Assembly: GCA_038727095.1 (NCBI GenBank)
Contig: JAVYWK010000018.1
Coordinates: 1-39,555, forward strand
Direction: 5' to 3'
Source of the DNA: Thermofilaceae archaeon
GTDB lineage: Archaea; Thermoproteota; Thermoprotei; Thermofilales; Thermofilaceae
Length of the DNA stretch: 39,555 bases
Shown here piece after piece: positions 3,366-22,062 of the stretch. The notes under the pieces were generated by a model that ran no database searches, was not told the origin of the DNA, and saw nothing but the letters and a program-made list of their open reading frames with translations. The translations under genes and the position numbers were made by a program. Position 1 is the first letter of the stretch. Every line of letters starts with the position of its first letter.

Positions 3366-3500
3366 GAGAGTTCCAGAGGGAGAGCAGCTTAAAGCCTGTT
3401 GCCCCAAGGTCGCATCGGCGCAGAGTGACCCGGCCGCTCGAAAAACTAGCTGCTTTAAGCTGGTGACGCCGCGATCGACGCCCTCACCCTCGGGCACGGT

Positions 3501-3506
3501 TTTAAA
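3501..3506 (+). promoter_or_regulatory. TATA box for the ADP-ribosylglycohydrolase gene
   Basis: TTTAAA about 23 nt upstream of in-frame GTG 3529, typical spacing for a leaderless archaeal transcript. Confidence 0.55.
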
Positions 3507-3528
3507 CGTGGTGCGGGGGAGTACGTGC

Positions 3529-5406
3529 GTGGAGCTTGTCGAGCTCGACTACTCGACGTACTACGATAAGGTGTACGGCGGCTGGCTGGGGAAGAGCGTC
3601 GGTGGAGCGGTTGGAGCGCAGGTGGAGGGGCAGAAGAGGCTCCACAGCTTCACCGAGGAGACCGCGTTCCCCGAGAAGTGGCCGCCGAACGACGATCTCG
3701 ATCTGCAGGTCCTCTGGCTCCACGCGATCTACGAGAGGGGGCTCCAGCTGACGAGTAGGGATCTGGCTGAGGAGTGGTGGGAGCACTGCTGGTACCACTT
3801 CAACGAGTACGGGCGCTTCCTCAAGAACTTCGCTAGAGGCATTGATCCCCCATACTCGGGCTGGTTCGACAACGAGTACTTCCGAGAGTCGATGGGATCC
3901 CCGATCAGGTCCGAGGTGTGGGGCTTCATCTTCCCGGGCAACCCGGATCTAGCGGCAGCCTACGCCGAGCGCGACGCCGTACTCGACCACTGGAGGGACT
4001 CGGTGTGGGCCGAGCAGTTCTACGCTGCGATCGAGTCGCTATCCTTCTTCGAGAGCGACTTGAACAAGCTGATCGAGACGGGGCTCCGCTACGTTCCCAG
4101 CGGCTCGAAGCTGAGGGCCCTCGTAGAGCTCGTCCTGGAGTGCAGGAGGAGAGGGCTCAGCTGGGTTGAAGCGAGGAGCGAAGTCCTCCGCCGGTTCGGA
4201 AACCCCGACGCGACCTCGGTCCACCAGAACGTGGGCTTTACGCTGATCGCCTTGCTCTGGGGCGAGTACGACTTTGGGAGGACCATTCTCATCGCGCTCA
4301 ACTCGGGCTACGACACCGACTGCACGGCCGCTACAGCGGGGGCGATCCTAGGCGTCATCCTCGGGGCCAGCAGGCTACCGGAGAAGTGGGTGGAACCGCT
4401 GCATGACTCCTTCGAGATGGGCTTCCCCCTGCCGAGGGAGAGCTACCGGATCAGCGATCTCGCCCACGAGACCTGCGCCGCGGGCATCGCAGCCTCGCGC
4501 CTCCTCAACAAGCGCGTCAGGATCGTGAACATGCCGAAGCGCGCCGAGGAGCTTGCGGCGAGGATCCCCATCCGCTCGATCCCCGGGGTGGAGCTCCATA
4601 TCGACTACCTCGGCCTCCCCGCTATCGGAGGAGGTGAGGTGAAGCAGATCGCCGTCAAAATCGTGAACAACGGGAGCAGCGCTCTCAGCGGTTGGCTGGA
4701 GCTCGAAGCGCCGGAAGGGTGGTCCGCGCCGGACCCCATCAGGGTTTCCGTGCCGCCATGCTCGTCTGAAAGCTGCCGCCTCCAGGTCAAAGCGCCAGCC
4801 TCCGGCCTCCTATGGGACCAGAACATCCTCAGAGCCCGCTTCGTGGAGGAAAGCGGGAGAGCGCACATCAGGGAGTTCGGGCTCGCCGGCTCAAAGCTGT
4901 GGCTCGTGCTGGGCCCCTTCTACGACAGCCCCAGCTGGCTGGTGGACAGGGCCGACATCGAGGAGCCGTACGTGGACGAGCGCTTGATCGAGAGCAGAGG
5001 GGAGCTGGAGCTCTTCAAAAGTGCTATCAAGCTGAGCTCCCCCACCAGCCTACTGCCGCTCAACAAGGTTGTAGGATTCGCAGGCGAATGCTGCCTCTAC
5101 CTACTCCACCGCCTCTACTCGCCAGACGAGAGGGACGTCTTCCTCGTCATAGGAGCTCAGGGAGACGTAAAGGTGTGGTTGAACGGGAGTCAGCTGATGT
5201 CATCCTCAAGCCAGGCTGCACGCTCCATCTGGAACCCCCTAATGCACTGGTACCCCGCCCACCTCCGGAGGGGGGAGAACAGGGTCGTCATCAAGTACGC
5301 AAAGAAGACGAGAGAACCCTTGCTCAGCTTCGACGTATACAAGGAGAACGTAGAAAGAAAACAGAGGTTCTCCGTGTGGCAAGTAGACCTCGCCAGTATA
5401 CTCTGA
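3529..5406 (+). CDS. ADP-ribosylglycohydrolase (DraG/ARH) family protein with C-terminal NEW3/Ig-like and PA14-like domains (true start ~3529, not 3145)
   Basis: YYDKVYGGWLGKSVGGAVG N-terminus, NDDLD and GYDTDCTAATAGAILG acidic metal motifs; V.N.G...SG.LEL.APEGW (NEW3-like); WLVLGPF and DVKVWLNG...HLRRGENRVVIK (PA14-like). The 3145-3528 extension overlaps the opposite-strand gene and looks non-coding. Confidence 0.85.
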   Translation: MELVELDYSTYYDKVYGGWLGKSVGGAVGAQVEGQKRLHSFTEETAFPEKWPPNDDLDLQVLWLHAIYERGLQLTSRDLAEEWWEHCWYHFNEYGRFLKNFARGIDPPYSGWFDNEYFRESMGSPIRSEVWGFIFPGNPDLAAAYAERDAVLDHWRDSVWAEQFYAAIESLSFFESDLNKLIETGLRYVPSGSKLRALVELVLECRRRGLSWVEARSEVLRRFGNPDATSVHQNVGFTLIALLWGEYDFGRTILIALNSGYDTDCTAATAGAILGVILGASRLPEKWVEPLHDSFEMGFPLPRESYRISDLAHETCAAGIAASRLLNKRVRIVNMPKRAEELAARIPIRSIPGVELHIDYLGLPAIGGGEVKQIAVKIVNNGSSALSGWLELEAPEGWSAPDPIRVSVPPCSSESCRLQVKAPASGLLWDQNILRARFVEESGRAHIREFGLAGSKLWLVLGPFYDSPSWLVDRADIEEPYVDERLIESRGELELFKSAIKLSSPTSLLPLNKVVGFAGECCLYLLHRLYSPDERDVFLVIGAQGDVKVWLNGSQLMSSSSQAARSIWNPLMHWYPAHLRRGENRVVIKYAKKTREPLLSFDVYKENVERKQRFSVWQVDLASIL

Positions 5407-5493: not shown

Positions 5494-8376
5494 CTAACCT
5501 CTTTGTGCCCTCCATTCGAGTGTTAGCTTTCTGACGAGTGATGCCACATCCCTTAAGCACTCTTTGGCGAACATCGTGTAAATGGTTACGATTTTCGATT
5601 CCAACTCTACAGCGTACTCGCCGTTTGCTCTCTTGATTCTAACCCTGTTGTAGGATTTAAAGGCTCGTCCCTCCACCTGGAGATATTCGAAGTAGACCAC
5701 GAAGACCGGTCGTTCTTCGTTACCTTCTATCCATCCCGAGACGCTATATACGCTCACCTTGTTTCCCGCCATCTCACTCAGCTTCGATTCGAGGAATTCG
5801 GCAAGCTCCCTTGCTTTCTCCTTACTCCTTACTACGACCGGTATCGGTGTGACGAGAGTGACTTCGCGTTCAACGTCATCTCGCGCGGATTCTTCTGCCT
5901 CTACCATCCACCTCCTTCTCAGAGATGGTACTGCTGCTACAACTGCTTTAGTGGCAGGCGATAGGGCTCCCAGGAGCGCTAGAACCGTTGGAAGAACTAT
6001 GGATAAGAGGAAGGAAGAAGTATCCAGTTTCACATCCACGGGTATCTCTGCACTGGTTGCACTGAATCCTCTGAATGCCGTTAAGCCGGCTAGATACCCC
6101 AAAACACCGCCGGCGAAGCCGATAACGCTGGCCATCATCACGAATACGAGGAAGACTTGGTCGGGGGTTGCTCCCAGTGTGGAAAGCGTGAAGATGTCCC
6201 TCCTTACCTCGTATACGAAGCCGAGAAACGACATGTAGACTATGAGCAGTGCTATGAGGCTGGGGATAAGGAGTTCCACCCCCACTACTTCAATCCGAAA
6301 GCCCGGGTAGTAAATTTCGGTGGGTTTACCAGCTTCAGCGACGTAGACGTTAACATTGCCCAGCAGGCTGAGGACTCTCGCTAACGTAGCGCTATCCGAT
6401 CCCGGGGTTAGTTTCACGTAAACCTTGTTTGTGACCGCTCCAACGAGGACAGCGTCTCCGTAGTAGAGGAACACAACGCTCTCAGCCGGCGGTTTGTAGC
6501 TCGAAGTTCCAACCATGATAGTGGGCAGCAAATCATCCCCGTCTAAGTCCTTGACTTTTGTCAGCGCTCTGCTATCGAAAACGCCAACCACCGTGTAACT
6601 AGATCCACCAATTTCGATAACGTCGCCAACCCTTAAACTGGCTGCTTTGGCCAGGGCGTCGCTGATGATGATTGCACTACTGTGAATCCCTAGGACGCTG
6701 CCCTCCACCATGCAGCAATTCTCCATGAGCATTGCGACTAGTGAGTTTTGGGTTATCCCAAACACGCCCGAGATAGGTAGTCCTCTCACCGTATCGTAGG
6801 GATTCATTGGGAACACCGCTATGGCGCTCGGAGAGATGCTTTGCACCTCGTTTCGGCTGGCGAGGAACGCTAACCCGGCAACATTGACCGGGGTGATCCC
6901 CCCGAAAGCTGCTAACCCGTAGCCGCGGGCGATGAGATACGGGCCGTCAATGGTCTCTGGTACAAATTCCGAGATTTGGTGGCTGACGGCAGTATGCATG
7001 GTAAACGATGTTAAGCACGTGGTACCAAAAGCCATCAAAGCGGTAGTAATGAAGAGTAAGATGGCTCTCAACCTTCGCCGCGCTAGGAAGCTTACAGAGA
7101 AGTTAACCGTTGAGGCGATTAGGCCTTCGAGAGTTGCACCGCTCGCAGTAGATATGGCTTGAACAGGTTTTTGCTTCAATAAAACCCTTAACCCCAGAAA
7201 GGCACCTATGACGGCTGCCGCCGAAGACAGCATGATCGCATTTATTCTAGCTTTTGGCAGCAGTTGAAAAGTAAGAACCCAGGTAACAGCGAATAGCGCG
7301 AAGCTGAAAACCACCTTTAAAGCCCACTTTTGGGACAACCTCAAACCTACTAGGAGGCAGAGGAGCATCTCAGCCCCGGTGAGTAGCAGTGCGTAAGTAA
7401 TGCTAGGCCCAGCTTCAAGTCGAACCAGGTATGTCTCAAGTTTCGATAAGAGGCTGTACGCAAGCCTCTGCCCGAACGCCTCCTGCAGGCTTCCGTCCTC
7501 AACTGCTACGCTCTCAGTGATTGATAACAGTCGTTTACTGCTGCCCAAGTAGTACCCGCTAGACTCGAGAGAGTTGAGGAGGTTACTCACGTTAGCTCGC
7601 AGTTCGCTCAGCTCCCCCCTGTTGGTTAGCAAAACTAGATTAGCGACATCTTCTATAGTCAAGGATCCGTTGGGTTTCGCGTCAAGAACCCACTTGAGCA
7701 ACTCTGCATGCCCCTTGAGCAGTACTCGTACTGAAACCTCTACCTGGCCCAATGGGGGGAGGATGAACCTTGATGCGTAAGAGGACAACTCAGGAACGGA
7801 GCGCCCTAGCAGCATCTGGTAGTTGGGCGTTAACCACTGCAGCTTGTAGGAGAGTTGCTCCGGCTCTAGCATTTGAACTTCAACTGAAATATCTGGGTAC
7901 CTCCCATCCAGGAGAGGTAGCACATTCACAGTTACAGCGAACCCTTCCACTACGGGCCACTCGAGGGTGAGTGCTGTCGAGTTAGCTAGGGTTTTCTCAT
8001 CAATAACCATGATAAAGGGAGTGAGGGGTTCTCCCCTGGAGAAGGGACCTAGGATTGAGAAGCGTTTAACTCCTGCGGGAACGGGTAGGAAAGCTTGGCT
8101 GCCTGAAACTTTGTAAGGGATGTACACTGGCACTTCGATGTAGCGGCGCGCTCCCGGTACTCTGGTGGGAAGGCTTCTCATTACCGTCGTATTGATGACC
8201 ATGAAGCCCTCAATCGGCCGCTGAAAGTTCAAGACGATTACACTCTGGGAAACCTCAGCGGTCATGGAATTACTGGTAAAACCATCCGAGTAAGCACATA
8301 CGCTCGGGAGGAGAAGTACAGAGATTACGGTCATAAGTCCTAGCGCTGCCCGCAAAGTGGGCTTAACGACTTTCAT
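5494..8376 (-). CDS. FtsX/MacB-like ABC-type permease with a large extracellular N-terminal region and a C-terminal soluble extension
   Basis: Signal peptide; ARRRLRAILLF start of a MacB-type extracellular core; LRVGDVIEIGG..YTVVGVF; VYEVRRDIFTLSTLGATP (FtsX ER.REI..L..LG motif); tail from AVPSLRRRW to LTLEWRA. Confidence 0.85.
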   Translation of the reverse strand: MKVVKPTLRAALGLMTVISVLLLPSVCAYSDGFTSNSMTAEVSQSVIVLNFQRPIEGFMVINTTVMRSLPTRVPGARRYIEVPVYIPYKVSGSQAFLPVPAGVKRFSILGPFSRGEPLTPFIMVIDEKTLANSTALTLEWPVVEGFAVTVNVLPLLDGRYPDISVEVQMLEPEQLSYKLQWLTPNYQMLLGRSVPELSSYASRFILPPLGQVEVSVRVLLKGHAELLKWVLDAKPNGSLTIEDVANLVLLTNRGELSELRANVSNLLNSLESSGYYLGSSKRLLSITESVAVEDGSLQEAFGQRLAYSLLSKLETYLVRLEAGPSITYALLLTGAEMLLCLLVGLRLSQKWALKVVFSFALFAVTWVLTFQLLPKARINAIMLSSAAAVIGAFLGLRVLLKQKPVQAISTASGATLEGLIASTVNFSVSFLARRRLRAILLFITTALMAFGTTCLTSFTMHTAVSHQISEFVPETIDGPYLIARGYGLAAFGGITPVNVAGLAFLASRNEVQSISPSAIAVFPMNPYDTVRGLPISGVFGITQNSLVAMLMENCCMVEGSVLGIHSSAIIISDALAKAASLRVGDVIEIGGSSYTVVGVFDSRALTKVKDLDGDDLLPTIMVGTSSYKPPAESVVFLYYGDAVLVGAVTNKVYVKLTPGSDSATLARVLSLLGNVNVYVAEAGKPTEIYYPGFRIEVVGVELLIPSLIALLIVYMSFLGFVYEVRRDIFTLSTLGATPDQVFLVFVMMASVIGFAGGVLGYLAGLTAFRGFSATSAEIPVDVKLDTSSFLLSIVLPTVLALLGALSPATKAVVAAVPSLRRRWMVEAEESARDDVEREVTLVTPIPVVVRSKEKARELAEFLESKLSEMAGNKVSVYSVSGWIEGNEERPVFVVYFEYLQVEGRAFKSYNRVRIKRANGEYAVELESKIVTIYTMFAKECLRDVASLVRKLTLEWRAQRG

Positions 8377-9610: not shown

Positions 9611-11077
9611 TCACTTCTTACGCCTTCTTAAGAGGATAAACGCAACAGCTGCGGCAATAACTATTAGTCCACCTATGCCCGCGTAAAGTAGGATAGGGAT
9701 CCCTTTCTGGAAGAGCTCTGGAACGTCGGGGTAGCTCGCGTCAACATCCGCGGGCTCGATTAAATAGTGCCCCCACTTCTGGAAGCCTTGAGCACCGGGG
9801 GCTATAACCTGGATTATTAAGTGGCCTGTTCCTTTGACGGAGTGCACACCGCTTCCCAGAACGATAAACTGGTCGCGTTTCAGCTCTTTCTGCTGACCGT
9901 TGATCCAAGCAGTCTGATCCTCAGGTGCGAACACGACGGCCATGGATGGTGTAAAGAACCTCACTTCCTGGTTTGGCCTTGAGCCGAGGAAGGTGATACC
10001 ATCACCGATGAAGTCGGGGGAGTCTTCCTGTAGCGTCTGGGCAATCAGCACGCTAATGTCGCCGGTGCTCTGAATCAGCGTGTCGAACCTACCGATGCCT
10101 AAGCTGAGGTACCAGTACCTCCTTTCGGCGACATCGCTCTCTGTAAACTCGTGCTCAGCTATGACGCTCATATCATCTCTCCTATAAACTGTAACTTTAC
10201 CAGGCTCTAACGGAACTATCACCAAGACAGCGCTCCTTCCCGTCTGTCGGTATGTCGCATGGTTTGGAGCCCAGAAGCTCCTTCCAACGTAACCACCCGT
10301 AAGGGCTGGTACATAGATGAGAGCCCCCAGCGCAACGCTACTCACCATAACCTCTCCCGTAGTGGTTAACTTAAACACCGCATCGTACCCAACCGCCGCA
10401 CTGACGCCACCTTGATTGACTCTGGATTGTAGAACAGCCCCAAAAACATCTCGAGGCTTGAGTGATTCTGAAGCTGAGAATCGACCAACCCTATCGACTA
10501 GATTGACGTCTGTTCCCTCCAGAGCGAAGACGTATAGATTGCGGTGAACAAGATCCATGGTATACCCGTACTGGTGGGTCGCGGGCGCGGGCATAAACAA
10601 GAAGTTCTTACCTCTGAACCCGCCTTCGACGCTCGGGTAGAAAGTAGCTACGCCGGAAAAGTAACCTGGATCATAAGCTGACGATCCACCCGTGAGTAAA
10701 ACTCCTACCCTCGCTGAAGCAACTAGCTTGAAGTATGTCCCGTAAGGCACGTAAAAGGTTGCTTTCTCCATAGCATTGAGAAGCGTTGAATTTAGAAGCA
10801 AGCCTGATACCACATCGTAAAGCTCGACTCTAGTCCCATCACGGTAAGCGACAACGTCCAACAGTGCATGCCCCCCTGGGGGAGTGAAGTTTACTTTTAT
10901 ACCCTCAACGAGTTCGTCTAGGCTGGGTAAATCCGTTGATGGCGGTACATATCCGTAATACACGTGTTGCACCGGTTGAGCCCATGCTGCTGGGTAGGTG
11001 AGCAGGTGGGCAATCGCCATAATCATGGAGAACAGCAATACTGCGAGTTTCACTTCAGACTTCATCATCAATGCCAT
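9611..11077 (-). CDS. Secreted, C-terminally membrane-anchored beta-rich surface protein, possibly IgGFc-binding-domain-like
   Basis: Signal peptide ending AAWA-Q; internal repeats FYPSVEGGFRGKNF / YVPALTGGYVGRSF; C-terminal TM helix followed by RRRKK. Confidence 0.7.
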   Translation of the reverse strand: MALMMKSEVKLAVLLFSMIMAIAHLLTYPAAWAQPVQHVYYGYVPPSTDLPSLDELVEGIKVNFTPPGGHALLDVVAYRDGTRVELYDVVSGLLLNSTLLNAMEKATFYVPYGTYFKLVASARVGVLLTGGSSAYDPGYFSGVATFYPSVEGGFRGKNFLFMPAPATHQYGYTMDLVHRNLYVFALEGTDVNLVDRVGRFSASESLKPRDVFGAVLQSRVNQGGVSAAVGYDAVFKLTTTGEVMVSSVALGALIYVPALTGGYVGRSFWAPNHATYRQTGRSAVLVIVPLEPGKVTVYRRDDMSVIAEHEFTESDVAERRYWYLSLGIGRFDTLIQSTGDISVLIAQTLQEDSPDFIGDGITFLGSRPNQEVRFFTPSMAVVFAPEDQTAWINGQQKELKRDQFIVLGSGVHSVKGTGHLIIQVIAPGAQGFQKWGHYLIEPADVDASYPDVPELFQKGIPILLYAGIGGLIVIAAAVAFILLRRRKK

Positions 11078-11155
11078 CTACCCCTCTCTTAAAAAGATTA
11101 CTGAAAAAAGGAATTAAAAAGAATTGTGAGTTGATTACTGCCCAATCCTCTCTTT

Positions 11156-13174
11156 TTAGTAAGCTCTGAACACCATGAACCTTATGATGTTTATCAAGCT
11201 GACCAGCAGTATGCCTGCGATCTCACCCGTGATGATGCCGACTGCTGCAGGAACACCGACCTCTTCGTAGGCTCTCCTGCCTCCAACCTTGATCAACGCA
11301 TATTTAACCGCCCAGACGATTAACGGAGTGAACGTGCCGATATGCCATGTATGGAAGTCGTGCAGCCCCAGCATGAATCCTAAGGGTTCTAGTGGCCACC
11401 ATGGGAACCTCATCCTCAAGAAGATTAGAGCACCGGTTAGGAGGAAGCCTACTAAACCGGGGATGGAAGCGATGCTGAGCCTCGGGTTGTAGAATCCGGC
11501 ATCACCATCCCAGAAGTAGTCCCACTCCTTAGCCACGGGCAGCTCCATAAAGCCCCAGGCGTGCAGCTCGATGAACGTTAACGGTATAGCTATCACAGCG
11601 GTGAGTATAGCACCGATCGTGAGTAGCTTGTAGACGGTATCTGGCTTCACTCCAGCCATCTGGGCTACCTTGAAGCTATCCATGGCGCCCATCATTGTCG
11701 AGTAGTAGGGACCGAAAGTATCGCAACCTGTTCCCCATCTGCATGTGTGAGAGATGATGAATAGCTTGCCGGCGGGGTACTGCGGTGCCGCTGGCATAGT
11801 ATCGCCAGCAAACGGCTTCCAGAAGTGCGCACCCCTTAGGAAGGTAATGTTGGCCGCATAGGCTCTAGCTCTTGTTAAGACAACCACCTGCAGCGTAATG
11901 ATCAGTAGCCCGATGACGGCATCCTGAGGTTCAACATTGCTGGCCGCGAATAGTATTATCAAACCGATCGCGCCTATAACCAGCATTAGGTAGGCTAGTC
12001 TGTAGGATACTTCACCGGGAGCAACACCGGGACCTCCACCGGAGATCGCTGACTTTATCGTACCCCAAATGTACTTCCAGTTAACGAGAATCATGAAGAC
12101 GAGGATGCCGAGAGCCATGCCAGCACTAACAGTCTCCAAGTATAGGGGCTCCGTGTGCCAGATCGCCCACCACTTGCTCCATATGCCCGCAGCGTATATG
12201 CCTGTGTAATAGCCAAAGTAGGTTAGAACTTGTGGCAGTATGACGGCAAAGCCGAGGTGTGCTACCCACATTGAGAGCAATGCGTCCAGCGGAACCAGGA
12301 AGAGGAAAGCGTGTCTTAACGGATCAGTTGCAACAACCACTGGGGCTGCGAGCCCCTGGGATACAGCCGGGTACGCTATAGTTAGCTGGAACTGGCCGGT
12401 TGACCAGCTGAGGTAGTTGGGGTTCGTTAACCAACCGTAGAAATCGGGGAGACCCGGGTACGCAGAGTAGATCATGTAGGGGACGTAGAACAGGAGGCCT
12501 ACCAGGAAAGAGATCTTCAGTATGCGTTTAAACCTATCGGACGTCTTACCCATTGCGGCTTCAGCTACAAGCCACCCCTGCGCGTGTGGGAAGGGAAGCA
12601 CCTCTATTTCGATCCACAGCCTCCTAAGGATCGCAGACCAGCCTAGGAAGAATAGAGCTGCAACAATGTACCAGTATACGTAAGTCGCGATAACCGGTGC
12701 CCACTCGTTCGCGTACACCGCGAAGAGGTTGTGCAGCGAGCCGCGGTAGAACATTCCTCGTACAGCATCAGCGGAGGGCATCCATATCATGGGCAGAGCG
12801 TAACCATGCGTTTCAGCCGTAGCAACCCTAATGTTGAATAGCGCGGCTGGTGTTGTGTAGAAACCTTTAAACACTGTGTACCAGGTTGTTATCATTGTTG
12901 CGATGAAGTAGAGGCATAAACGCTGAGCGTCGAGCTTAACCAGGTTCCTTTCCATGAGGAACAGCATTATCATTGCAAAGACCCAGGGTAGTGGCATAGC
13001 AACTAGTAAGCCACCCGAGGGCCCGTAGTTTATGCCGCCTGTACCCCAGGCGGCTGGTAGGAAGAGTGTAGCCGTTGTTGATATGACTGTCAAAATTGCG
13101 AGGTAGACGATCAGGGAGATCCAATCTTTAGTTGTTAGCGGGCGAACTTCCTCGACTTTTGAGGTAGTCGCCAT
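11156..13174 (-). CDS. OPT-superfamily-like polytopic membrane protein (DUF6785 + DUF6784 type)
   Basis: Many hydrophobic helices; ILRRLWIEIEVLPFP and LRMRFPWWPLEPLGF...KYALIKVGGRRAY motifs characteristic of this uncharacterized family. Confidence 0.75.
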   Translation of the reverse strand: MATTSKVEEVRPLTTKDWISLIVYLAILTVISTTATLFLPAAWGTGGINYGPSGGLLVAMPLPWVFAMIMLFLMERNLVKLDAQRLCLYFIATMITTWYTVFKGFYTTPAALFNIRVATAETHGYALPMIWMPSADAVRGMFYRGSLHNLFAVYANEWAPVIATYVYWYIVAALFFLGWSAILRRLWIEIEVLPFPHAQGWLVAEAAMGKTSDRFKRILKISFLVGLLFYVPYMIYSAYPGLPDFYGWLTNPNYLSWSTGQFQLTIAYPAVSQGLAAPVVVATDPLRHAFLFLVPLDALLSMWVAHLGFAVILPQVLTYFGYYTGIYAAGIWSKWWAIWHTEPLYLETVSAGMALGILVFMILVNWKYIWGTIKSAISGGGPGVAPGEVSYRLAYLMLVIGAIGLIILFAASNVEPQDAVIGLLIITLQVVVLTRARAYAANITFLRGAHFWKPFAGDTMPAAPQYPAGKLFIISHTCRWGTGCDTFGPYYSTMMGAMDSFKVAQMAGVKPDTVYKLLTIGAILTAVIAIPLTFIELHAWGFMELPVAKEWDYFWDGDAGFYNPRLSIASIPGLVGFLLTGALIFLRMRFPWWPLEPLGFMLGLHDFHTWHIGTFTPLIVWAVKYALIKVGGRRAYEEVGVPAAVGIITGEIAGILLVSLINIIRFMVFRAY

Positions 13175-13250: not shown

Positions 13251-16200
13251 GTGAGCGCAAAGAAGCTGCACGTTAGCGTGATACTAGCGCTTTTAATTGT
13301 AGTAACCTTACAGGCTTCGATCTTACAGGTTCCTTTAATAAGCGCGCAACCCGTGGTAGTCACTCCCCGCAGGTTCAATGAGGTGATTGCCTCCCTTGAT
13401 AAAACGCTATTCCAGCAAGAGGTTGAGCTGCTCTCCAAGGAATCCAGGTTTACAGGGTATCCAGGTTTCTTCAAGGCGGCAAACTACATCGCACAGGTTT
13501 TCAGGGAAAACGGTATACCCCCGTATGGGCAAGATTACTTCGAGTGGTTTAACGTAACTGTTCCAATCGTTAAGCAAGCTTGGCTTATAACTGAAAATGG
13601 TAGGAACATTACCCTACTCCCGTTTTACCCGAACTTGGTTAACCCCAGCCAGTACGTTAGTGATGATTGGGATATCTTAGTGTATGTGGGTAAAGGCGAT
13701 CTAAAGGATTTTGATGGAAAGGATGTGAAAGATAAATTCGTTCTAATGGATTATGGATCTGGGTGGAACTACTACAACGCGCTCATGCTAGGGGCAAAGG
13801 GTGTGATCTTCATACCTGAAGACTCATCATCGGTGGATAGGCCGGAGTCCGAGCTGAAACTTACTCTTCTTCCTGTAAACTTTCCTAAACTGTACCTGCC
13901 GCCGGACGAGAAAGGCCTGGAACTGTTAGAGTTGTGCAGGAGATCGGGGTCCCGTGGAATCAGAGTCAAAATCCGCTCTGTAGTGGAGTGGGGAAACGTT
14001 AGAGTTCCAAACGTGGTTGGCTTTGTGAAGGGTACAGACCCGGCAAAATCCCAGAAAATAGTAGTGGTGGCCGCGTACTACGACTCCTTCTGCGCTATCC
14101 CCTCACTGGCGTACGGCGCTACCGATGCTCTCGGCGTGGTTACGCTTCTGCATTTCGCAAGATTTCTAGCGAAGAACCCTCCAAGCTACTCCGTTATAGT
14201 TGTAGCGCTAGCCGGCCACTACCAAGGTCTTTGGGGCGCCAGAGAGTTTGTTGAACGGCACTTCAATGAACTCGAATCTCAGATTATCGCGTTTGCTTCG
14301 ATGAAGCTCGCGAGTGACAGCGATCAGGTTGGTATCTACGCTGTGGGTTCCGCTTACTCTTACAGGTACCTTGACATACTGGTTCGCAGGTACACTTGGC
14401 TGGTTAGCAGGGTTTTCGGACCCTGGCTAGCTGAGATGAGGATGGTTTTAGGAAGCCGCTACGGCGAAAACTTTGTAGACGGTATCCTCGGAAGCCATCC
14501 CCCCTACTTGAGGTCGGCAGTCCCCTACGACCCTCATCTATACGGCTACTTTGCCCCCTCCGCGGTCTTCGGTGCACATGCATGGTACCTACGGACACAG
14601 TACGCGATCTTCGACTCAGAGCCTTTTACGCTCGCGATGTACGGTGGTGGATTCACATTTTACACAACTAACGCTTTTCGGAAATACCAGGGCTCTCCTG
14701 CAGATACGGTATCCAACATCAATTTCGATAACGTGTGGCCTCAAGTGCATTTCATTCACTGCACGCTTTGGGCGATGCTAAATGAGGAGATCAACCTGCC
14801 GACTTCTAAAAGGAGGCTTAGCGACGACTGGGGCTACGTGACTGTTAGCGTTAAAGTGACAACGTACAACATGCTTACATCGTACTGGGACATAGTTAAC
14901 TTCACCCAGTATCCCGAGCTGAGGGGTAGGCTCCTAACCTACATTACGTATGGCGGCTTGAAGTTTGTGCAAAAGGTTGAGGACACCGGTACAGTCACAA
15001 TCCACGGCCTCAAACCCTACATGGGCGGGAGCGTAGATGTGTTTGCAATCGATGAGCACGGTAGGATATTGTGGACAACCGACATGGGCGTCTGGCAGGC
15101 GCCCGGTGGTAAGTGGTTCACTCCCACCTCATACCCCTACGTGAAAATGGTGTCGATATTCGAGTGCGCGTCGATCTTCGTGTTTCTAACGATGCAGCCG
15201 ACCGACTTTAGAACAGTATGGTTTACCGGGATAAATGATGCGAGAGCCCACAGCCCAATGATCAGGCAGAACAGCTTGCAGGCGGACATCTTTGCGATGG
15301 CGTTTGTTCAGCCGGGGATTCCCGCCGAGATTATGCTTAGCGTGGGGACAGGGTTGCCGAGCGTTGTACTGAATAACGCTTCTACCAATCGACCGGAGGG
15401 CTTTGGATACAGGCTAGCAAAGGGGGAGCAGATCGTACTCTCACAATTCCACGTTCTCGAGAACCTTTACGCTGTAGTCAACAGTCGGTACGAGAGCTTA
15501 AGATCGAGGAACGTTATAATCCCCGTCCTCGAGTATTACGCTGACCTTGTGAAGCAGGTTAAAAGGCAGATGGCGGACAATCTACAGACTCTAAGGTATT
15601 CAAACGCGTTCGGTGCTTGCCTGTACGCGTGGGCAGCTCTCCTGAACTGGTATAATTCTCTAATGACTTCACTGTATCAAGTTATTACGTCCGTTGCAGC
15701 CTTCTTTGCCATTTCAATTCTCTTCTCGATACTGTTTGAAAGGTTGACTGTAAGATCCGAGGGGTTGCGGAGGTTAATCAGCCTGCTGGCATTAATTACC
15801 ATGGCCAACTTTGCGCTCTACATCCTGCATCCGGCCTACCACGTCGCCAGCAACTGGGTAATCCTGCTTCTAGCTGTGTCAGCAGTATCTCTTAACATCG
15901 TGCTCCTCTTCATAGCCTTCATGAACGCCTACACGATGGCGAAGGCAACGAGAGAAGCTGCACTAGGTAAGCACTACCTAGAGATCAGCCGTACGGGGCT
16001 TTTCCTTGAAAGCATGGTGATAGCTGTAGAGAACATGAGGAAGCGCAAATTGCGATCAATCCTGATACTTGGCGCTGTCACAGTGATCGCGTTCTCCACG
16101 ATGTCGCTAGCCTCGGTGACTACAGCTCCTGTCTTACTACCACAACCCATTAACGTGACTTACATGCCGAGCTTCGAGGGTCTTTTAGTGAGGGCTTACC

Positions 16201-17705
16201 CGTGGTCCCCAATCAACCCCTATGCTTACAACATGCTTGCTTCCTACCTCGAGGGATCGTGCTATGTATCTCCTCGAGCTTTCATGTACCCCCCATCGCT
16301 GATGGTTGCTATGCCGGGGTTAGCTACGGGGCTCACGTACATTGCGTTCAGCCCGCAGCTTAAGACGCAAGTCTATTCTTTACTGGCGTTAGCTCCCGAG
16401 GAAGCGTACGTGTCAAACATAGATAAACTGCTCGTTGATGGGCGATGGTTCACCGACGACGACGTGTATGCCGTCATATTGACCCAAAGTGTTGCAAACA
16501 GCCTTTCTCAGGAGCTGGGCAGGCAGATCGGAGTGAATTCAACGCTTAACCTATGGAGCATCAACGTTAGAGTGGTTGGAATAATCAAGGATGAGGTTGA
16601 GAGATTCGCGAATCCAGACGCTGAACCCATAACACCCTTAGATCCTCAATCACCGATTGCGCTGCCACAGCACATATTCGCTCGGAACACCATGATCATC
16701 CCCTTCAAGCTGTACCAGAAGCTGGCACCCACCTACGCTGTAACAAACATCGGTATCAGGCCGCTGAACGTGGAGGTAGCAAACCACTTAAAAAGTACAC
16801 TCCCATACGTCATCAACTACCCAATCTACTCATCATTCGGGGGTTCAGTGTCAGCTTGGATCGCTAGGCAGTGGATCAGCGCGATAGGGTTTGAATTCAT
16901 CCTTATACCCGCGATCATAGCTAGCGCAGCCGTATTAGACATGATGCTCGCCAACATTTACGAGAGGAAAAGGGAAATTCACATTTTCATCTCTGTTGGA
17001 ATGGCGCCCTCTCACGTAACTCTCGCCTTCCTCACCGAAGCGTTAACCTATGTTCTTCCCGCCGTGTTCCTGGGTTACGTGGCTGGTGTCCTAGCCACCA
17101 ACTTAATGCTGACTGCCGGTGCCTTCCCAGAAGGTTTGTATCCAAATTACACATCGATGTCGATCTTAATGGTCGTCCTCCTTATAATAGCGATCGTACT
17201 AGTGGCCGCCTACTACCCCTCCACTCTAGCCGGGAAGATAGCCATACCGTCACGCGTTAGAAAGTGGATTGAGGCCGAGAAAGGACCAACGGGGGATGAG
17301 TGGAGGTTGTCCTACCCACTCGTATTAACAACAGCTAGAGAAGTGATAGCGTTCTTCAACTTCGTTAAAGGCTATCTGGAGTCTCTAGCCATCAGAGAGT
17401 CCGCCTACTATGCCGAAAAAGTCGAGATCACTGAGAGGGAGAGTAAGGAGGGGCACGAGCTGCACATGATGGCAAGTTGCAGGTTCGCACCCTATGACCT
17501 AGGTATCAAGAGCGATGTAATCCTCAGAGCGTTCAAGAAGGGTGATTCACCTGTTTACAACTTCGACTTAGTGATCAAGAGACTCGAAGGTTACAGGCAG
17601 GCTTGGCGAACGTCTGCGATCACTGTAGCAGGCGACATCAGGAGGCAGGCGATTGTTTGGCGAAGCCTCAGCCCTGAAGAAAGAGAAAAATACGCTAGGG
17701 TGTAG
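13251..17705 (+). CDS. Fusion of a PA + degenerate M28 peptidase extracellular domain with an FtsX/MacB-like permease (1484 aa)
   Basis: Signal peptide; SRFTGYPG..AA.YI (M28 N-terminus); VYVGKG...DVKDKFVL...GAKGVIF (PA domain); NVVG..IVVVAAYYDS..GATD..GHYQGLWGA (M28 core with substituted ligands); ENMRKRKLRS; IYERKREIHIFISVGMAP (FtsX); tail from AIPSRVRKW to AIVWRSL. Confidence 0.85.
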   Translation: MSAKKLHVSVILALLIVVTLQASILQVPLISAQPVVVTPRRFNEVIASLDKTLFQQEVELLSKESRFTGYPGFFKAANYIAQVFRENGIPPYGQDYFEWFNVTVPIVKQAWLITENGRNITLLPFYPNLVNPSQYVSDDWDILVYVGKGDLKDFDGKDVKDKFVLMDYGSGWNYYNALMLGAKGVIFIPEDSSSVDRPESELKLTLLPVNFPKLYLPPDEKGLELLELCRRSGSRGIRVKIRSVVEWGNVRVPNVVGFVKGTDPAKSQKIVVVAAYYDSFCAIPSLAYGATDALGVVTLLHFARFLAKNPPSYSVIVVALAGHYQGLWGAREFVERHFNELESQIIAFASMKLASDSDQVGIYAVGSAYSYRYLDILVRRYTWLVSRVFGPWLAEMRMVLGSRYGENFVDGILGSHPPYLRSAVPYDPHLYGYFAPSAVFGAHAWYLRTQYAIFDSEPFTLAMYGGGFTFYTTNAFRKYQGSPADTVSNINFDNVWPQVHFIHCTLWAMLNEEINLPTSKRRLSDDWGYVTVSVKVTTYNMLTSYWDIVNFTQYPELRGRLLTYITYGGLKFVQKVEDTGTVTIHGLKPYMGGSVDVFAIDEHGRILWTTDMGVWQAPGGKWFTPTSYPYVKMVSIFECASIFVFLTMQPTDFRTVWFTGINDARAHSPMIRQNSLQADIFAMAFVQPGIPAEIMLSVGTGLPSVVLNNASTNRPEGFGYRLAKGEQIVLSQFHVLENLYAVVNSRYESLRSRNVIIPVLEYYADLVKQVKRQMADNLQTLRYSNAFGACLYAWAALLNWYNSLMTSLYQVITSVAAFFAISILFSILFERLTVRSEGLRRLISLLALITMANFALYILHPAYHVASNWVILLLAVSAVSLNIVLLFIAFMNAYTMAKATREAALGKHYLEISRTGLFLESMVIAVENMRKRKLRSILILGAVTVIAFSTMSLASVTTAPVLLPQPINVTYMPSFEGLLVRAYPWSPINPYAYNMLASYLEGSCYVSPRAFMYPPSLMVAMPGLATGLTYIAFSPQLKTQVYSLLALAPEEAYVSNIDKLLVDGRWFTDDDVYAVILTQSVANSLSQELGRQIGVNSTLNLWSINVRVVGIIKDEVERFANPDAEPITPLDPQSPIALPQHIFARNTMIIPFKLYQKLAPTYAVTNIGIRPLNVEVANHLKSTLPYVINYPIYSSFGGSVSAWIARQWISAIGFEFILIPAIIASAAVLDMMLANIYERKREIHIFISVGMAPSHVTLAFLTEALTYVLPAVFLGYVAGVLATNLMLTAGAFPEGLYPNYTSMSILMVVLLIIAIVLVAAYYPSTLAGKIAIPSRVRKWIEAEKGPTGDEWRLSYPLVLTTAREVIAFFNFVKGYLESLAIRESAYYAEKVEITERESKEGHELHMMASCRFAPYDLGIKSDVILRAFKKGDSPVYNFDLVIKRLEGYRQAWRTSAITVAGDIRRQAIVWRSLSPEEREKYARV

Positions 17706-17708
17706 GCG

Positions 17709-19646
17709 ATGATCGTGAAGAGCGAAGGTAAGGCGCTCACACCGAAAATTATCCTAATGTTCCTATTTACGGCACTTATACTGCAGCCACTCGTTATATA
17801 CTACTTTCTGCTAACGAACAGCTTTTACGCATTCTCTTACTGGATTCCCATCCTCCTCTTTGCTGAAATTGCTAGCTTGGCTAGAGCGGATTTTACCAGT
17901 AAAGAGCTCTTCATGCTCCTAATCTTCCAACCGGTAGCCTTCTCATACTCCCTCTTCTTCATAAACTTCATACGTAACATGTACTTCGCCTACAGCGAGC
18001 CTTCAAAGTACTTCGGCATAGCGCAGCATGTGCCCAGTTGGTGGGTACCGTCTGAGCACATAGTAGCATCATTTTACGAGGAGAAGTGGGTGTTCCTTGA
18101 TCGAGCGTGGCTGCAACCAATCGCTCTTGCACTGGTTTTCATAGCGCTAACCATCATGATAGATCTATCGCTCGGCTACTTGAGCTACATGCTGTTCGTT
18201 GTTGAGGAGCGATTGGAGTTCCCCTTTGCACGCGCTACCGTTGCGATGGTGACAACACTGGCTAACAGAGAGCCGACCACATTGAGGACGCTCTTCGCCG
18301 CGACAGCTGCCGGTATAATCCTGAATCTCGTCTTAAAATTCCTGCCTTTCATGCTCTCAGTATTCCTTCTCGGTGGAACATTCGTAGTGGGTGGAATACC
18401 ATTCTACGGCTACGATTTCACCGGGTATCTGGATTACGTCCTACCCGGAGCAGCCTTCCTAATCGTAACTGACCCACTAGCGTATGTGAGCGGCTTATTG
18501 ATACCACCGGTAGTCGCCGTCACACAGTTCATCGCAAGCTTCACCCTCTACTTCGTGGGTACACACCTGATAACGCGATTCGATCTCTGGCCGCCCGAGA
18601 GCAAGTGGGTGACTGGTTGGGGCTACTGGACACTACAGTTCAGGAGCATGCTATACTTCTACGTCTCCCTGCTCATTGGCCTGAGCCTAGCAGCGATGGT
18701 GATCCCCCTGGCAATGAATCCAAAACCGCTGGCACGCGCTTTCAGGTCGCTCAGAACGATGAGCGCAAGAGGGGGCGTTTCAGCAAACCTTCTGTTAGCG
18801 CTATTTTTCGGCTCATCGGTCACCGCTAGCCTTCTCGCCTGGTACCTAACGGGGTTCAGGTTCCCGGTCTACATACTCCTAATCCTCTTCGTCGGAGGAT
18901 CGTTCTTCGCGACCTACATCGCTACAGCCTCGGCGGGAGTTACAGTCTTCGGGACAAGCGTTCCCTACCTGAGGGAACTAATGATATACGTGTCCGGTTA
19001 CGATAAGAGGGATATCTGGTTCGTCCCTATGCCAGCCCTACTGTCCAGCGCTCCTCTCGGTACAGCAGCAGCCACGCTGTCCTCACCTCTAGGCGGCTCA
19101 TCGATTGCGCAGGCTCTACTGCAGGCCGACGTCGTGGGAGTTAAACACTCGGATTTTGTGACTACGTACATGCTGCTCATCGTAGTAAACCTCGTTAGCA
19201 GTTTCATTTTCGCAAACATCTTCTGGAGTATATCTCCGATCCCCTCTAGCGCCTACCCGTACACAATCACCGGCTGGCCTGTAGACGCCGTTAACTGGGC
19301 GCGAATGCAAGTGTGGATCTGGACCGGCTACCTCTTCAGGCACACGTGGATCGCATTGGGCTTCGCCGTGGGCGCGGCCCTTTTTGCAGTCTCGAACTTC
19401 GTCCTTAGAGCGCCCTACCTACTGATCGTCGCTCTAACCGGTGCAGGTATGGGAATCCCGTGGGCCTTCTCCCAGATGCTAGGCTCTTTGATCGGAAGGA
19501 GAGCTCTCAGCAAGATGCTGGGGGAGAAGTGGGGCATGTACTCGTACCTCATCGTGACGGGCATCTTCCTGGGGGATGCAGTAATGGAGATGCTCAGAGT
19601 GTTGATGATAATCCTAGCTCGAGCCCAGTGGCTGCTGCCCTTCTAA
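17709..19646 (+). CDS. OPT-like polytopic membrane protein (putative transporter), co-transcribed with the M28-FtsX fusion
   Basis: Starts 3 nt after the upstream stop; highly hydrophobic; LFVVEERLEFPFA motif matches EIEVLPFP in 11156..13174; FWSISPIPSSAYPY. Confidence 0.75.
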   Translation: MIVKSEGKALTPKIILMFLFTALILQPLVIYYFLLTNSFYAFSYWIPILLFAEIASLARADFTSKELFMLLIFQPVAFSYSLFFINFIRNMYFAYSEPSKYFGIAQHVPSWWVPSEHIVASFYEEKWVFLDRAWLQPIALALVFIALTIMIDLSLGYLSYMLFVVEERLEFPFARATVAMVTTLANREPTTLRTLFAATAAGIILNLVLKFLPFMLSVFLLGGTFVVGGIPFYGYDFTGYLDYVLPGAAFLIVTDPLAYVSGLLIPPVVAVTQFIASFTLYFVGTHLITRFDLWPPESKWVTGWGYWTLQFRSMLYFYVSLLIGLSLAAMVIPLAMNPKPLARAFRSLRTMSARGGVSANLLLALFFGSSVTASLLAWYLTGFRFPVYILLILFVGGSFFATYIATASAGVTVFGTSVPYLRELMIYVSGYDKRDIWFVPMPALLSSAPLGTAAATLSSPLGGSSIAQALLQADVVGVKHSDFVTTYMLLIVVNLVSSFIFANIFWSISPIPSSAYPYTITGWPVDAVNWARMQVWIWTGYLFRHTWIALGFAVGAALFAVSNFVLRAPYLLIVALTGAGMGIPWAFSQMLGSLIGRRALSKMLGEKWGMYSYLIVTGIFLGDAVMEMLRVLMIILARAQWLLPF

Positions 19647-19710
19647 AAGGAATACTTTAGCACCCAGTCATTCTTTCATCGTTTAAGCCGCTCAATTTTT
19701 TAGAAGAAAA

Positions 19711-22062
19711 ATGTCGGGAAGGCTCGTGAGTAGAGCTTCCTCGCCGCAGCGGTTGAGGCGCGCGTGCGGCTTGATAGTGCTAGCCATCACTGCCCTAGCC
19801 TTGGCGTCGGTTAGGACGGTCCTTGTAGGTGGGGAGGTGGCTGGCTGGGACCACTCCTTCCACTTCACTAACGCGTACCTCACCTACTTCTTCTTCATGG
19901 CGGATGGACACCCCATCGGCTACGACCCTTGGCACATGTACGGATGGCCTCCAAACCTCTACTACAACCCGGGGACAACGCTGTTCGTAGCGTTCACCCA
20001 CAGCATCCTCTCGCCCCTGCTCGACATGAAGTCTACGTACAGCCTCTGCGTCGCGCTCAGTTACGCGCTGATGGCTCCCGCCGCTGCGGTGCTCGCGCAC
20101 GCGTTAACCGGATCCCCCCTCGCCGCCACTACGGCCGCCCTAGTTGCGGTCACAGTCTTCGATGAGGAGAACTCTTGGACGGATGCCGGCTGGCGCCAAG
20201 TGTACTACATTGGGATGTGGCCCCAGCGGTGGGGGATTGTGACGGGGTTGGCATCGATCGCTCTCCTCGTGTACGCTATCAAGAGGCGCGGCTTCGAGGC
20301 TCTCCCGCTGCTAGCAGCCTCCACCCTGCTCATGGCGTGGTCCACCTTCACTCACGTGATGATGGGCGCTGCCACAGCCGTTTCTGCCTTGGTGTTTGCT
20401 CTCTTTGAGGCTTCCAAGGCGATCTTCCAGCGCTCTTTCAGAGATGGAGGAAGGGTTGTCGTGTTAAGCGCCTTGTGGCTGCTCTGGTCTCTAGCTCTAC
20501 TGGCCTTCTGGCTCGTCCCCATGCTTGAGACGAACGAGAGGTACCACGGGCTTCGAACGCTCACCTGGGAGGTTGGGCCCGGGATCGTGTTCACGATTCT
20601 AGCCTCCTACCCCGCCTACCTCAACGTGCTGGCCCTCGCAGGCCCACTGCTGACCACCGTTAAACGGAGAAAGCCCATTCCTTGGATCCTCTATGCAGCT
20701 TGGGTTGTTCTGACTGCGGCGACCGTCGCGTCCGCTGGAGGAGCTTTACCGCGCGAAGCTATGGGTACATTCACCCTCCTATCGCTCTGCTTCGCCCTAC
20801 CCCTGTACTCTTGGTCCGGTGGCGAGGGGGGCCTCATCCTGCTGCCCACACTAGCTCTGCTGCTACTGTGGCTGGCTACGGGACCGAGGACCTACGTGAT
20901 CCTGCTCCCCGGTGCGAAGCTGAGCTTCGAGAACCTCCCCGTCATTGAGTGGTTTGGGTACGGCAAGTTCGCGGGGTACGCACGCTACATCCTATTGATC
21001 AGCTTCTCAGCCACAGCGGCCGCGTTCATCTCGAAGGCTGCGGGGTGGGCCCATCGTAACCCCGGTCAGGATCGCTGGGTGGCAGCCCTAGCTGTGGCTT
21101 CACTGGCGGTTGCCGGGCTTTACCTGCCGGCTCTCTCTGGAATGCTCAGGAACACCGATTTCGTCACTCAATCGAAGAAGTTCAGGTTCATCGAGGAGTT
21201 CCCCCTGTACAGCAACGTGAGCGACTTCATCTCCGCCCTATCAATCCTGGGGTTGAGCAGTAACACGTACCTGCTCGTGCAGGACCTCAGCGACAACTTC
21301 GCTGATTGGGTCACCTTCTGCCACAACCACTTCGTCTACGAGTTCCCCCTCTACCTAGGCGTCCCCATTGTAGGAGGCATCGTCTGGACCCGCTACGCGA
21401 CGCAGCCCATCTCAACGACGGAGTACTCGAGGCTCTTCACGGTCGATATCGGCCACTGGGCGCAGAACGTGGAGACGTTCCACCGGATGCTCAGTGAGCT
21501 TGGGATCTCCTACGTTGCGACCTTCGACTGGAGGCTCAAGGAAGCGCTCAGGTCCAGCCCCCTCTTCGAGGAAGTGGTGTCCGTGCCGCCCTACACGCTC
21601 TTCAGGACGAGGAGCTTCCACCCGTTAATCACGGTGGAGGGGGCTGAGGTGAGGGATGTCGTCATTCGACCCAACCTCATCCGCTTTACGCTCAAAGCCC
21701 ACCCGCTCCAGGAGTACGAGGTTTGCGTTAGGCTGATCCGGTTCCCCGGGCTCACCGTCACTACCTACCCGGAGGCCGTCTCGATCGCCATCTCCAGCTA
21801 CAACCCATGGGTGGCTGACGAGGTTTCGAGAGCTTGGGGCTACAGGGTTGAATCGAGAATCCCCTTCATCAAGCTCACCTTAGTTCCGCTCGCGGACGAA
21901 ACGGTCGTGGAGATCCGCTACAGGCCTGGCAGCTGGGGCGACAGCGTCTCGCTGGTAGCCGTTCTAGCCGCATCCCTCGCGCTGCTACAGCCCATCCTAG
22001 CCTACTTGCACGCTTTCGCTCGTTTCAAGCTGGCCTGGCGACAGCAGCGTTCACCGTTTTGA
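19711..22062 (+). CDS. Multi-pass membrane protein of the PTPS-related/YfhO-like group, probable GT-C-fold glycosyltransferase
   Basis: GWDHSFH then WHMYGWPPNLYYNPG in the first external loop; many TM helices, AFWLVP, extracellular C-terminal domain with LSELGISYV, final TM; TATA tttaag ~24 nt upstream. Confidence 0.65.
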   Translation: MSGRLVSRASSPQRLRRACGLIVLAITALALASVRTVLVGGEVAGWDHSFHFTNAYLTYFFFMADGHPIGYDPWHMYGWPPNLYYNPGTTLFVAFTHSILSPLLDMKSTYSLCVALSYALMAPAAAVLAHALTGSPLAATTAALVAVTVFDEENSWTDAGWRQVYYIGMWPQRWGIVTGLASIALLVYAIKRRGFEALPLLAASTLLMAWSTFTHVMMGAATAVSALVFALFEASKAIFQRSFRDGGRVVVLSALWLLWSLALLAFWLVPMLETNERYHGLRTLTWEVGPGIVFTILASYPAYLNVLALAGPLLTTVKRRKPIPWILYAAWVVLTAATVASAGGALPREAMGTFTLLSLCFALPLYSWSGGEGGLILLPTLALLLLWLATGPRTYVILLPGAKLSFENLPVIEWFGYGKFAGYARYILLISFSATAAAFISKAAGWAHRNPGQDRWVAALAVASLAVAGLYLPALSGMLRNTDFVTQSKKFRFIEEFPLYSNVSDFISALSILGLSSNTYLLVQDLSDNFADWVTFCHNHFVYEFPLYLGVPIVGGIVWTRYATQPISTTEYSRLFTVDIGHWAQNVETFHRMLSELGISYVATFDWRLKEALRSSPLFEEVVSVPPYTLFRTRSFHPLITVEGAEVRDVVIRPNLIRFTLKAHPLQEYEVCVRLIRFPGLTVTTYPEAVSIAISSYNPWVADEVSRAWGYRVESRIPFIKLTLVPLADETVVEIRYRPGSWGDSVSLVAVLAASLALLQPILAYLHAFARFKLAWRQQRSPF

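Follow-up and report, generated by a model that had tools for sequence, protein, structure and literature searches.

Aminopeptidases of the M28 family that carry a PA domain, such as the Aneurinibacillus AM-1 enzyme (2ek8) and BSAP (YwaD) of Bacillus subtilis (6hc6), and the Aeromonas/Vibrio proteolytica aminopeptidase (AAP; 1amp), are the best sequence and structure matches to a domain that we describe here from a Thermofilaceae archaeon. The domain forms the head of a giant membrane protein, the M28–FtsX fusion encoded in a 39,555-nucleotide stretch of contig JAVYWK010000018.1 (assembly GCA_038727095.1), which we refer to as the window. Pseudo-enzymes with the M28 fold are known as a kind: transferrin receptor 1 (TfR1, which also has the PA domain), nicalin and nicastrin are, like the giant protein, membrane-anchored and without the metal site, and here, too, the fold may serve binding. 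The base of the giant protein resembles the type VII ABC transporters MacB, LolCDE, FtsEX and YtrF in having the FtsX unit of four transmembrane (TM) helices, the first two of which, TM1 and TM2, are separated by an outer MacB_PCD-like domain. A functional parallel to a dead peptidase on such a base is offered by FtsEX, which acts together with degenerate peptidase-fold proteins, among them EnvC. The permeases encoded on either side share their fold with OPT/Yellow-Stripe-like (YSL) transporters (PF03169; barley YS1 (HvYS1), 7wst).

This architecture and the partnership with OPT-like permeases are new. Searches of the literature by title listing, without supplements, found no paper on an M28–FtsX fusion or on DUF6785/DUF6784, and no record of OPT proteins with an accessory binding protein. 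The reading that we prefer, and to which we give an even chance, is that the pseudo-peptidase head binds cargo for OPT-type importers, as a zinc-less, peptide-capturing module on a MacB/FtsX base.

The aminopeptidase-fold head and its metal site

The gene is real, because it has 99 homologs of ~1400-1670 amino acids at E ≤ 0.001, the closest of which is 95% identical. From hydropathy, its product is predicted to have eight membrane helices (Table 1), with residues ~30-805 and 955-1215 outside the cell and residues 889-935 and 1321-1484 inside. Pfam recognizes Peptidase_M28 (PF04389, clan MH) at residues 254-351 (E 6.1e-10; 39.6 bits against a cut-off of 21.3), in a match that spans only positions 1-92 of the 193 in the profile, as well as MacB_PCD (PF12704) at residues 1042-1117 (27.5 bits; cut-off, 27) and FtsX (PF02687) at residues 1216-1330 (53.2 bits). 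Searched against the Protein Data Bank (PDB), a family profile of 80 members also matched MacB (5lil, E 4.7e-17), YtrF and LolC/E/F. These matches bear out an earlier note, made from the sequence alone, which had proposed that an M28-like head is fused to FtsX. The conserved C-terminal domain gave no match and hence no known family in Pfam and NCBIfam scans.

An exhaustive search with the head returned 3190 cluster representatives at E ≤ 0.001, of which 970 remain at a threshold of 1e-10 and 433 at one of 1e-30 (50% identity clusters), and 121 of the 138 further representatives that we fetched are at least 1300 amino acids long. For a stand-alone short head, a search of word-based sensitivity gave 13 matches, which proved to be a partial sequence (P0101), a 102-amino-acid fragment and weak canonical M28 proteins.

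We modelled residues 30-880 with AlphaFold2 from an 80-row alignment (mean predicted local distance difference test score (pLDDT), 94.0; predicted template modelling score (pTM), 0.90). Foldseek ranked PA-containing M28 aminopeptidases at the top (2ek8, E 5.9e-22; BSAP; PaAP), followed by TfR1 and glutamate carboxypeptidases II and III. In VIA-align, the modelled head superposes on BSAP with Z 29.3 over 383 aligned residues, on 2ek8 with Z 28.6 and on AAP with Z 28.2 (root mean square deviation 2.4 Å; 265 of 291 residues), the full PA and M28 fold being recovered in the superposition that the earlier note had suggested. Of the 406-412 residues of the PA-containing BSAP and 2ek8, 383-391 align with the head, in agreement with the note that the PA insert is retained. 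Because of these structural alignments, the model can be taken to contain both halves of the M28 core as well as the PA insert, though Pfam detects the first half only. The PA model itself (PF02225) has no match in the giant protein and is listed for 4 of 99 relatives; the family profile matched the PA domain of ZNRF3 weakly (E 0.004). The insert sits inside the M28 core in the same domain order as in 2ek8 and BSAP. With family-profile E values of 3.4e-31 for 2ek8 and 1.1e-18 for BSAP, homology of the head to M28 is far above chance.

A special kinship with the transferrin receptor or nicastrin, which the earlier note had raised as precedents, did not hold up. TfR1 aligns with Z 26.8, against 28-29 for the enzymes, and the family profile matches it at E 4.7e-12 and nicalin at E 3.1e-8. 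The giant protein is no nearer to TfR1 and nicalin than to active enzymes, and its loss of the metal site is therefore independent. Unlike TfR1, it shows no match to the helical dimerization domain beyond the core, the aligned ranges ending near model residue 500, and both its membrane part and its partners differ from those of TfR1, nicalin and nicastrin. Nicastrin did not turn up in the match lists, with no dedicated comparison made.

The five degenerate M28 motifs of the earlier note (AYYDS, GATD, GHYQGL, SMK and YQGSPADT) lie where it placed them (Table 1). We assigned column equivalence to M28 by phmmer against the PDB, by the 80-member profile against the PDB and by a MAFFT L-INS-i alignment with seven canonical M28 proteins. 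The assignments of Y276, H323, Y324 and K352 agree across all three. That of G481 to the second His ligand comes from a weak second HMMER stretch and from MAFFT, and is anchored on a conserved T/S-P-x-D; the note was correct that this ligand is lost, but it had paired the position with Q480 where the alignments give G481, and His stands at neither. For the bridging Asp, the loop, which has one residue fewer than that of canonical M28 proteins, leaves a choice of two neighbouring positions: T291 in the 2ek8 alignment and D292 in the BSAP and MAFFT alignments. As aligned, at most one of the five zinc ligands (His, Asp, Glu, Asp and His) is retained and the general-base Glu is lost, and the note, which had left about one of five ligands and no catalytic Glu, was right or even generous.

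The alignments, in which other residues stand at the general-base Glu and at four of the five ligand positions, support the conclusion that the head cannot work as a canonical M28 peptidase with co-catalytic zinc. It resembles the M28 aminopeptidases in keeping the framework residues D278, G329, P483 and D485, and the model places Y276 and K352 at β-strand ends and H323-Y324 after a strand and a Gly, like the canonical ligands. It differs from them, apart from the replaced residues, in an insert, ~50 residues long, that separates the D352 strand from the DSEPF motif, in a further 950 residues of outer and membrane modules, and in being membrane-anchored and not secreted.

A conserved replacement site in relatives and paralogs

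To count residues at the site, we aligned the first 800-850 residues of the protein with 99 homologs and 138 further representatives (238 rows), and used the 234 rows with letters at columns 278, 323 and 352. None of the 234 has Glu at either column of the catalytic Glu pair; at column 323, that of the catalytic Glu itself, His is found in 210. D278 is invariant and an acid stands at 291 or 292 in 232 rows. His occurs at column 276 in 78 rows and at 481 or 482 in 19, and column 352 is Asp in 201 and Lys in six. Only 15 rows, the giant protein among them, are without H276, an acid at 352 and H481/482 alike.

In an outgroup-rooted FastTree tree, which gives local supports only and came with long-branch warnings, the giant protein is nested deep in a 70-row clade (support 96) that has the signature x-T-D-H-[YW]-D. 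K352, G481 and S482 are limited to a four-row subclade (support 100), and K352 appears to be a late, derived change common to these four sequences. Across 68 sequences of the signature clade, column entropy is 0.11 at H323, 0.26 at Q325, 0.32 at T291, 0.38 at D292, 0.49 at column 352 and 0.80 at Y276; for the 496 columns of the head the median is 1.70. Because the replacement residues are among the best-conserved columns of the head, the site has been rebuilt and is under selection, and is neither a relic nor a product of recent decay. The earlier note had offered a choice between an ectodomain that binds and a rebuilt His/Tyr site: a remodelled, conserved site is present, and it fits both alternatives alike.

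The same remodelling can be followed within one genome. The host genome (1.86 Mb, 52 contigs; the window is contig C18) has nine M28 matches, six of which are in open frames of 1488-1530 amino acids. By BLAST, it encodes six full-length M28–FtsX paralogs including the window copy, with 25-28% mutual identity. The copy at C10:8685 keeps His, Asp-Glu and Asp at the site; those on C42 and C16 keep His, a loop Glu-Glu and Asp; those on C8 and at C10:58273 have lost more, and the window copy has lost most. His323 is kept in all six, and an OPT-like paralog lies beside each of the six. The six giant/OPT-like pairs together take up ~38 kb, or 2% of the genome. Order and orientation differ among the paralogs: the OPT-like gene may be downstream of the giant gene, upstream of it or divergent from it, and in three cases the two overlap by 8-19 nt.

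The His that prevails at the catalytic-Glu column in the alignment could mean that the head is still a hydrolase, with H323 as general base in a His/Tyr/Asp/Lys pocket that works metal-free or with one loose metal and trims peptides for the OPT importers. We consider this quite improbable. In its favour, 67 of the 234 relatives, and the paralog at C10:8685, keep His276, an acid and Asp352, which in AAP together coordinate one of the two zincs. The family profile also prefers 2anp, the Glu151-to-His (E151H) mutant of AAP, to the wild-type 1amp (1.4e-13 versus 1.3e-11), and the titles of the 2anp entry and of its paper (Bzymek et al. 2005) call that mutant ‘functional’. However, E151H works in AAP with both zincs present, whereas the window copy has none of H276, D352 and the second His, and retains at most D292 and H323 to hold a metal. 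We know of no metal-free M28 hydrolase. A non-canonical hydrolase based on H323 is thus plausible for the 67 relatives with the triad and unlikely for the window copy.

A second alternative, that the head is purely structural, is one that we regard as unlikely. It would then serve as a spacer, make oligomer or surface-layer contacts, or help the OPT-like permeases to assemble as a chaperone. Nicalin and nicastrin are M28-fold pseudo-enzymes that act as scaffolds or gatekeepers in membrane complexes, and the giant protein has large extra outer domains (residues 530-805) that would suit such a part. Yet few columns of the head are as well conserved as those of the former active site, which is unexpected if only the fold mattered, and six diverged paralog pairs in one genome suggest differing specificities.

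OPT-fold partners and the FtsX base

Two permease genes flank the giant gene (Table 1). Partner 1 has no Pfam match, and neither window partner matches the OPT model PF03169; within their families, the model matches 10 of 48 members for partner 1 (best E 1.2e-17) and 4 of 36 for partner 2 (best E 6.9e-9). A fold search with the AlphaFold2 model of partner 1 (pLDDT 88.1, pTM 0.88) matched only HvYS1 (7wst_A and 7wsr; E 4.8e-8; TM-scores 0.64 and 0.68), all other TM-scores being ~0.1. HvYS1 was found by fold search only: the partner 1 family profile gave nothing significant against PDB sequences (one match, E 0.69). On the strength of the model, partner 1 is shown to have the OPT/YSL fold, to which partner 2 is tied by an hhalign match between the two families (probability 99.9, E 4.3e-34, 606 columns). 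Both are very divergent from typical OPT/YSL proteins, and one is filed as DUF6785/DUF6784.

Related loci preserve this pairing. With one genome scanned per species, 225 stretches matched, and 180 of these encode a relative; our counts are from the best 80 loci, which belong to Thermofilaceae, Bathyarchaeia, Brockarchaeota, other Thermoproteota, Armatimonadota and Latescibacterota. In 62 of the 80, the giant gene has an OPT-like homolog no more than 500 nt away, which in 53 cases is downstream on the same strand; the homolog lies farther off in six loci and is absent from 12. At five of the loci without it (L005, L029, L034, L056 and L069) the contig ends within ~270 nt downstream, and at L045 it continues for 3.7 kb. 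A DUF6785 homolog is found in 47 of the 80 loci. We consider a receptor function of the giant protein plausible, a reading that gains support from this pairing with OPT-fold permeases. A complex prediction limited to partner 1 (645 residues) and residues 732-1030 of the giant protein (the stalk, three extra TM helices and TM1 of the FtsX module) gave a score of 0.07 (mark, 0.32), a value that favours neither contact nor its absence.

The base has no neighbouring gene for the ATPase usual for its type. Using a scan for the Walker-A and signature motifs, we found 32 ABC-like open reading frames (ORFs) in the genome, none of which lies beside any of the six paralogs; across the related loci, an ABC-like ORF occurs within the fetched flanks (~10 kb) at 10 of 80, none adjacent to the giant gene. 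At loci L061-L064, an ABC-ATPase-like ORF lies 4-7 kb downstream. Compared with type VII ABC transporters, the giant protein thus has no ATPase gene in cis, adds three TM helices and an 800-residue N-terminal head, and has OPT-fold secondary transporters as its conserved partners in place of ATPases or adaptors.

These observations bear on a third alternative, in which the protein belongs to an export or detoxification machine like MacB or BceAB: an ATPase encoded elsewhere would drive the FtsX base, the head would sense or expel, for example, antimicrobial peptides, and the OPT-like proteins would act in export or recycling. The FtsX/MacB_PCD module is what such a machine would have, and a JGI label on relatives reads ‘ABC-type antimicrobial peptide transport system permease subunit’. 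Three ATPases in the genome are of the LolD/MacB type (254, 234 and 232 bits, against at most 161 for the others); two adjoin a small FtsX permease of their own, and the third, C11:8829-9563, has no FtsX neighbour. We nevertheless judge this highly improbable, as linkage to an ATPase is not conserved and the conserved partners have the fold of OPT proteins, which are importers. Six copies in the 1.86-Mb genome of what is likely a peptide-fermenting archaeon would also fit nutrition over defence.

The genes are transcribed. In a hot-spring metatranscriptome (X4; raw reads, ~5% of the run), 179 reads map to 11000-19800 at ≥95% identity, including 89 at ≥99%. Between the DUF6785 gene, which is on the minus strand, and the plus-strand giant and OPT-like genes, the strand of the first mates switches at the divergent promoter, as it should when a stranded library records sense transcripts. 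Read depth is 4-11 over the DUF6785 gene and 0.4-2.9 over the M28–FtsX and OPT-like genes; the former (11000..13057) is ~4-10 times deeper than the genes at 13940..19800, at low depth and in one run. Contigs from X1 cover 29 of 30 bins at 95-99% identity, and one spans the 17705/17709 junction, which is not proof of a single transcript. Runs X2 and X3 yielded no mapped reads, a result that carries no weight against transcription.

Table 1. Features of the M28–FtsX locus, with positions in the window unless a contig is given
Feature	Position	Strand	Description and basis
M28-like/FtsX giant membrane protein	13251..17705	+	1484 aa, GTG start; ORF, homologs, sense-strand reads
N-terminal signal/anchor helix, residues 6-24	13266..13322	+	Hydropathy window
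PA + M28 aminopeptidase-fold head, residues ~38-530	13362..14840	+	AlphaFold2 model, Foldseek, VIA-align, Pfam M28
PA-like insert of head, residues roughly 100-250
AYYDS, residues 275-279	14073..14087	+	Y276 aligned with first His ligand; D278, invariant framework Asp
GATD, residues 289-292	14115..14126	+	D292 (or T291, other register) aligned with bridging Asp
GHYQGL, residues 322-327	14214..14231	+	H323 aligned with catalytic (general-base) Glu; Y324 with Glu ligand
SMK, residues 350-352	14298..14306	+	K352 aligned with Asp ligand
YQGSPADT, residues 479-486	14685..14708	+	G481 aligned with second His ligand; framework P483, D485 kept
Outer β-rich domain (~530-730) and helical stalk (~732-805)	14838..15665	+	Family-specific; model secondary structure
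Three extra TM helices, residues 811-829, 842-860, 870-888	15681..15914	+	Hydropathy and model helices
MacB/FtsX-type module	16056..17210	+	Pfam FtsX, MacB_PCD; family-profile matches
Parts of MacB/FtsX-type module			TM1 936-954; outer MacB_PCD-like domain ~955-1215; TM2-4 1216-1320 (helices 1216-1234, 1264-1282, 1302-1320)
C-terminal cytoplasmic domain, residues ~1321-1484	17211..17702	+	Near-invariant alignment columns
Partner 1, polytopic OPT/Yellow-Stripe-fold permease	17709..19646	+	645 aa; 3 nt downstream of giant gene
Partner 2, DUF6785/DUF6784 permease	11156..13174	-	672 aa; Pfam; divergently transcribed; distant paralog of partner 1
Other M28–FtsX paralogs	C10:8685-13127, C8:6396-10898, C10:58273-62760, C42:2649-7100, C16:15478-19977		Each adjoins an OPT-like paralog
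Second FtsX + MacB_PCD protein, without M28 head	5494..8376	-	960 aa; 5 kb upstream of giant gene
Exported protein with C-terminal membrane anchor	9611..11077	-	488 aa; no Pfam family
Protein of no assigned family	19711..22062	+	783 aa
Sole genome paralog of 783-aa protein	C12:6134-8464		Divergent beside giant FtsX protein
Giant FtsX protein	C12:8523-13901		1792 aa
ORF with ADP-ribosylglycohydrolase domain, residues 145-413	3145..5406	+	753 aa
ORF overlapping the preceding	2283..3497	-	404 aa

Other genes of the window occur less regularly in related loci. Separate homologs of the headless 960-residue FtsX protein are found in a few of them (for example, L003, L006, L021 and L060); by analogy, this protein could pair with the giant protein as LolC does with LolE. 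The exported 488-residue protein, which has a GPS-CTERM-like match below cut-off (E 5.9e-4), has relatives in 12 of the 80 loci by tblastn, and L020 contains four homologous ORFs, three of them in tandem. The 783-residue protein recurs in 4 of the 80. The 753- and 404-residue ORFs overlap by ~350 nt, and one start, or one ORF, of this pair is probably wrong. G+C content is 0.50-0.52 over 6-18 kb, the block of membrane-protein genes, against 0.58-0.62 at 2-4, 20-24 and 36-38 kb.

Proposed role and its meaning

In the reading that we prefer, an eight-helix protein whose extracellular PA and M28 head is without a zinc site would have no zinc aminopeptidase function. Its former active site would be rebuilt as a conserved, polar pocket lined by Tyr, His and Asp, the convergence of these residues in one pocket being predicted, and this pocket may bind a peptide-like ligand on the extracellular side and leave it uncleaved. 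On its MacB/FtsX base, the head would present cargo to, or gate it for, the adjacent proton-driven permeases of OPT fold, making the giant protein the part that binds cargo in a secondary importer dependent on such a module. The FtsX base could be a static scaffold or could be moved by a LolD-type ATPase encoded elsewhere. The fold of the head, the loss of ligands, the conservation of the replacement residues across the family, the pairing of the genes, the OPT fold of the partners and transcription are observations; ligand binding, the physical complex, the direction of transport and the nature of the cargo are what we propose. Peptides would be the simplest cargo because of the aminopeptidase ancestry of the head and its OPT partners.

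A more ambitious form of the proposal, which we advance tentatively and hold to be doubtful, is that the remodelled pocket is a working site and the giant protein the cargo-capturing subunit of an undescribed importer, in which a dead aminopeptidase on an ATPase-less MacB/FtsX scaffold feeds secondary permeases of OPT/Yellow-Stripe fold. In a bolder variant, Y276, Y324, H323 and D292 could serve the Yellow-Stripe-like partner by binding a hard metal or a metal chelate. Tyr, Tyr, His and Asp form the Fe(III) ligand set of transferrins, an analogy that suggested this variant; against it, column 324 is Trp in 15 of the 68 clade members.

Several points weigh against a binding module for OPT importers. 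FtsX modules normally require an ABC ATPase, and because none is encoded beside the six paralogs and few ABC-like ORFs occur in the 80 loci, the role of an FtsX base without an ATPase in cis is unexplained. Six loci (L061-L064, L072 and L073) have room on both sides and yet no OPT-like neighbour; this subgroup may be an ATPase-using version of the system. We also know of no characterized OPT transporter that needs a binding partner. Finally, because 67 of the 234 relatives keep the triad of His276, an acid and an acid at 352, and because the 2anp titles describe an E151H aminopeptidase as ‘functional’, some members of the family may still be hydrolases, and binding alone need not be the ancestral role.

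The family is large (433 clusters), extends over several archaeal and bacterial phyla, occupies six loci in a single genome and is transcribed in hot-spring metatranscriptomes. Its members bear the public names ‘M28 family peptidase’ or ‘FtsX-like permease’. Estimates of protein degradation by Bathyarchaeia, Thermofilaceae and other sediment and hot-spring archaea would be too high if these proteins were counted as extracellular peptidases; the catalytic Glu pair is missing from all 234 relatives examined. The six paralogs form a natural series from enzyme to pseudo-enzyme, in which a binuclear metal site appears to be stripped stepwise while the His at the general-base position is kept. If our proposal is true, a pseudo-aminopeptidase on a MacB-type base with OPT-fold permeases would be a new build of binding-module-dependent secondary transporter, and would give prokaryotic proteins of the OPT superfamily (DUF6785/6784) a testable role.

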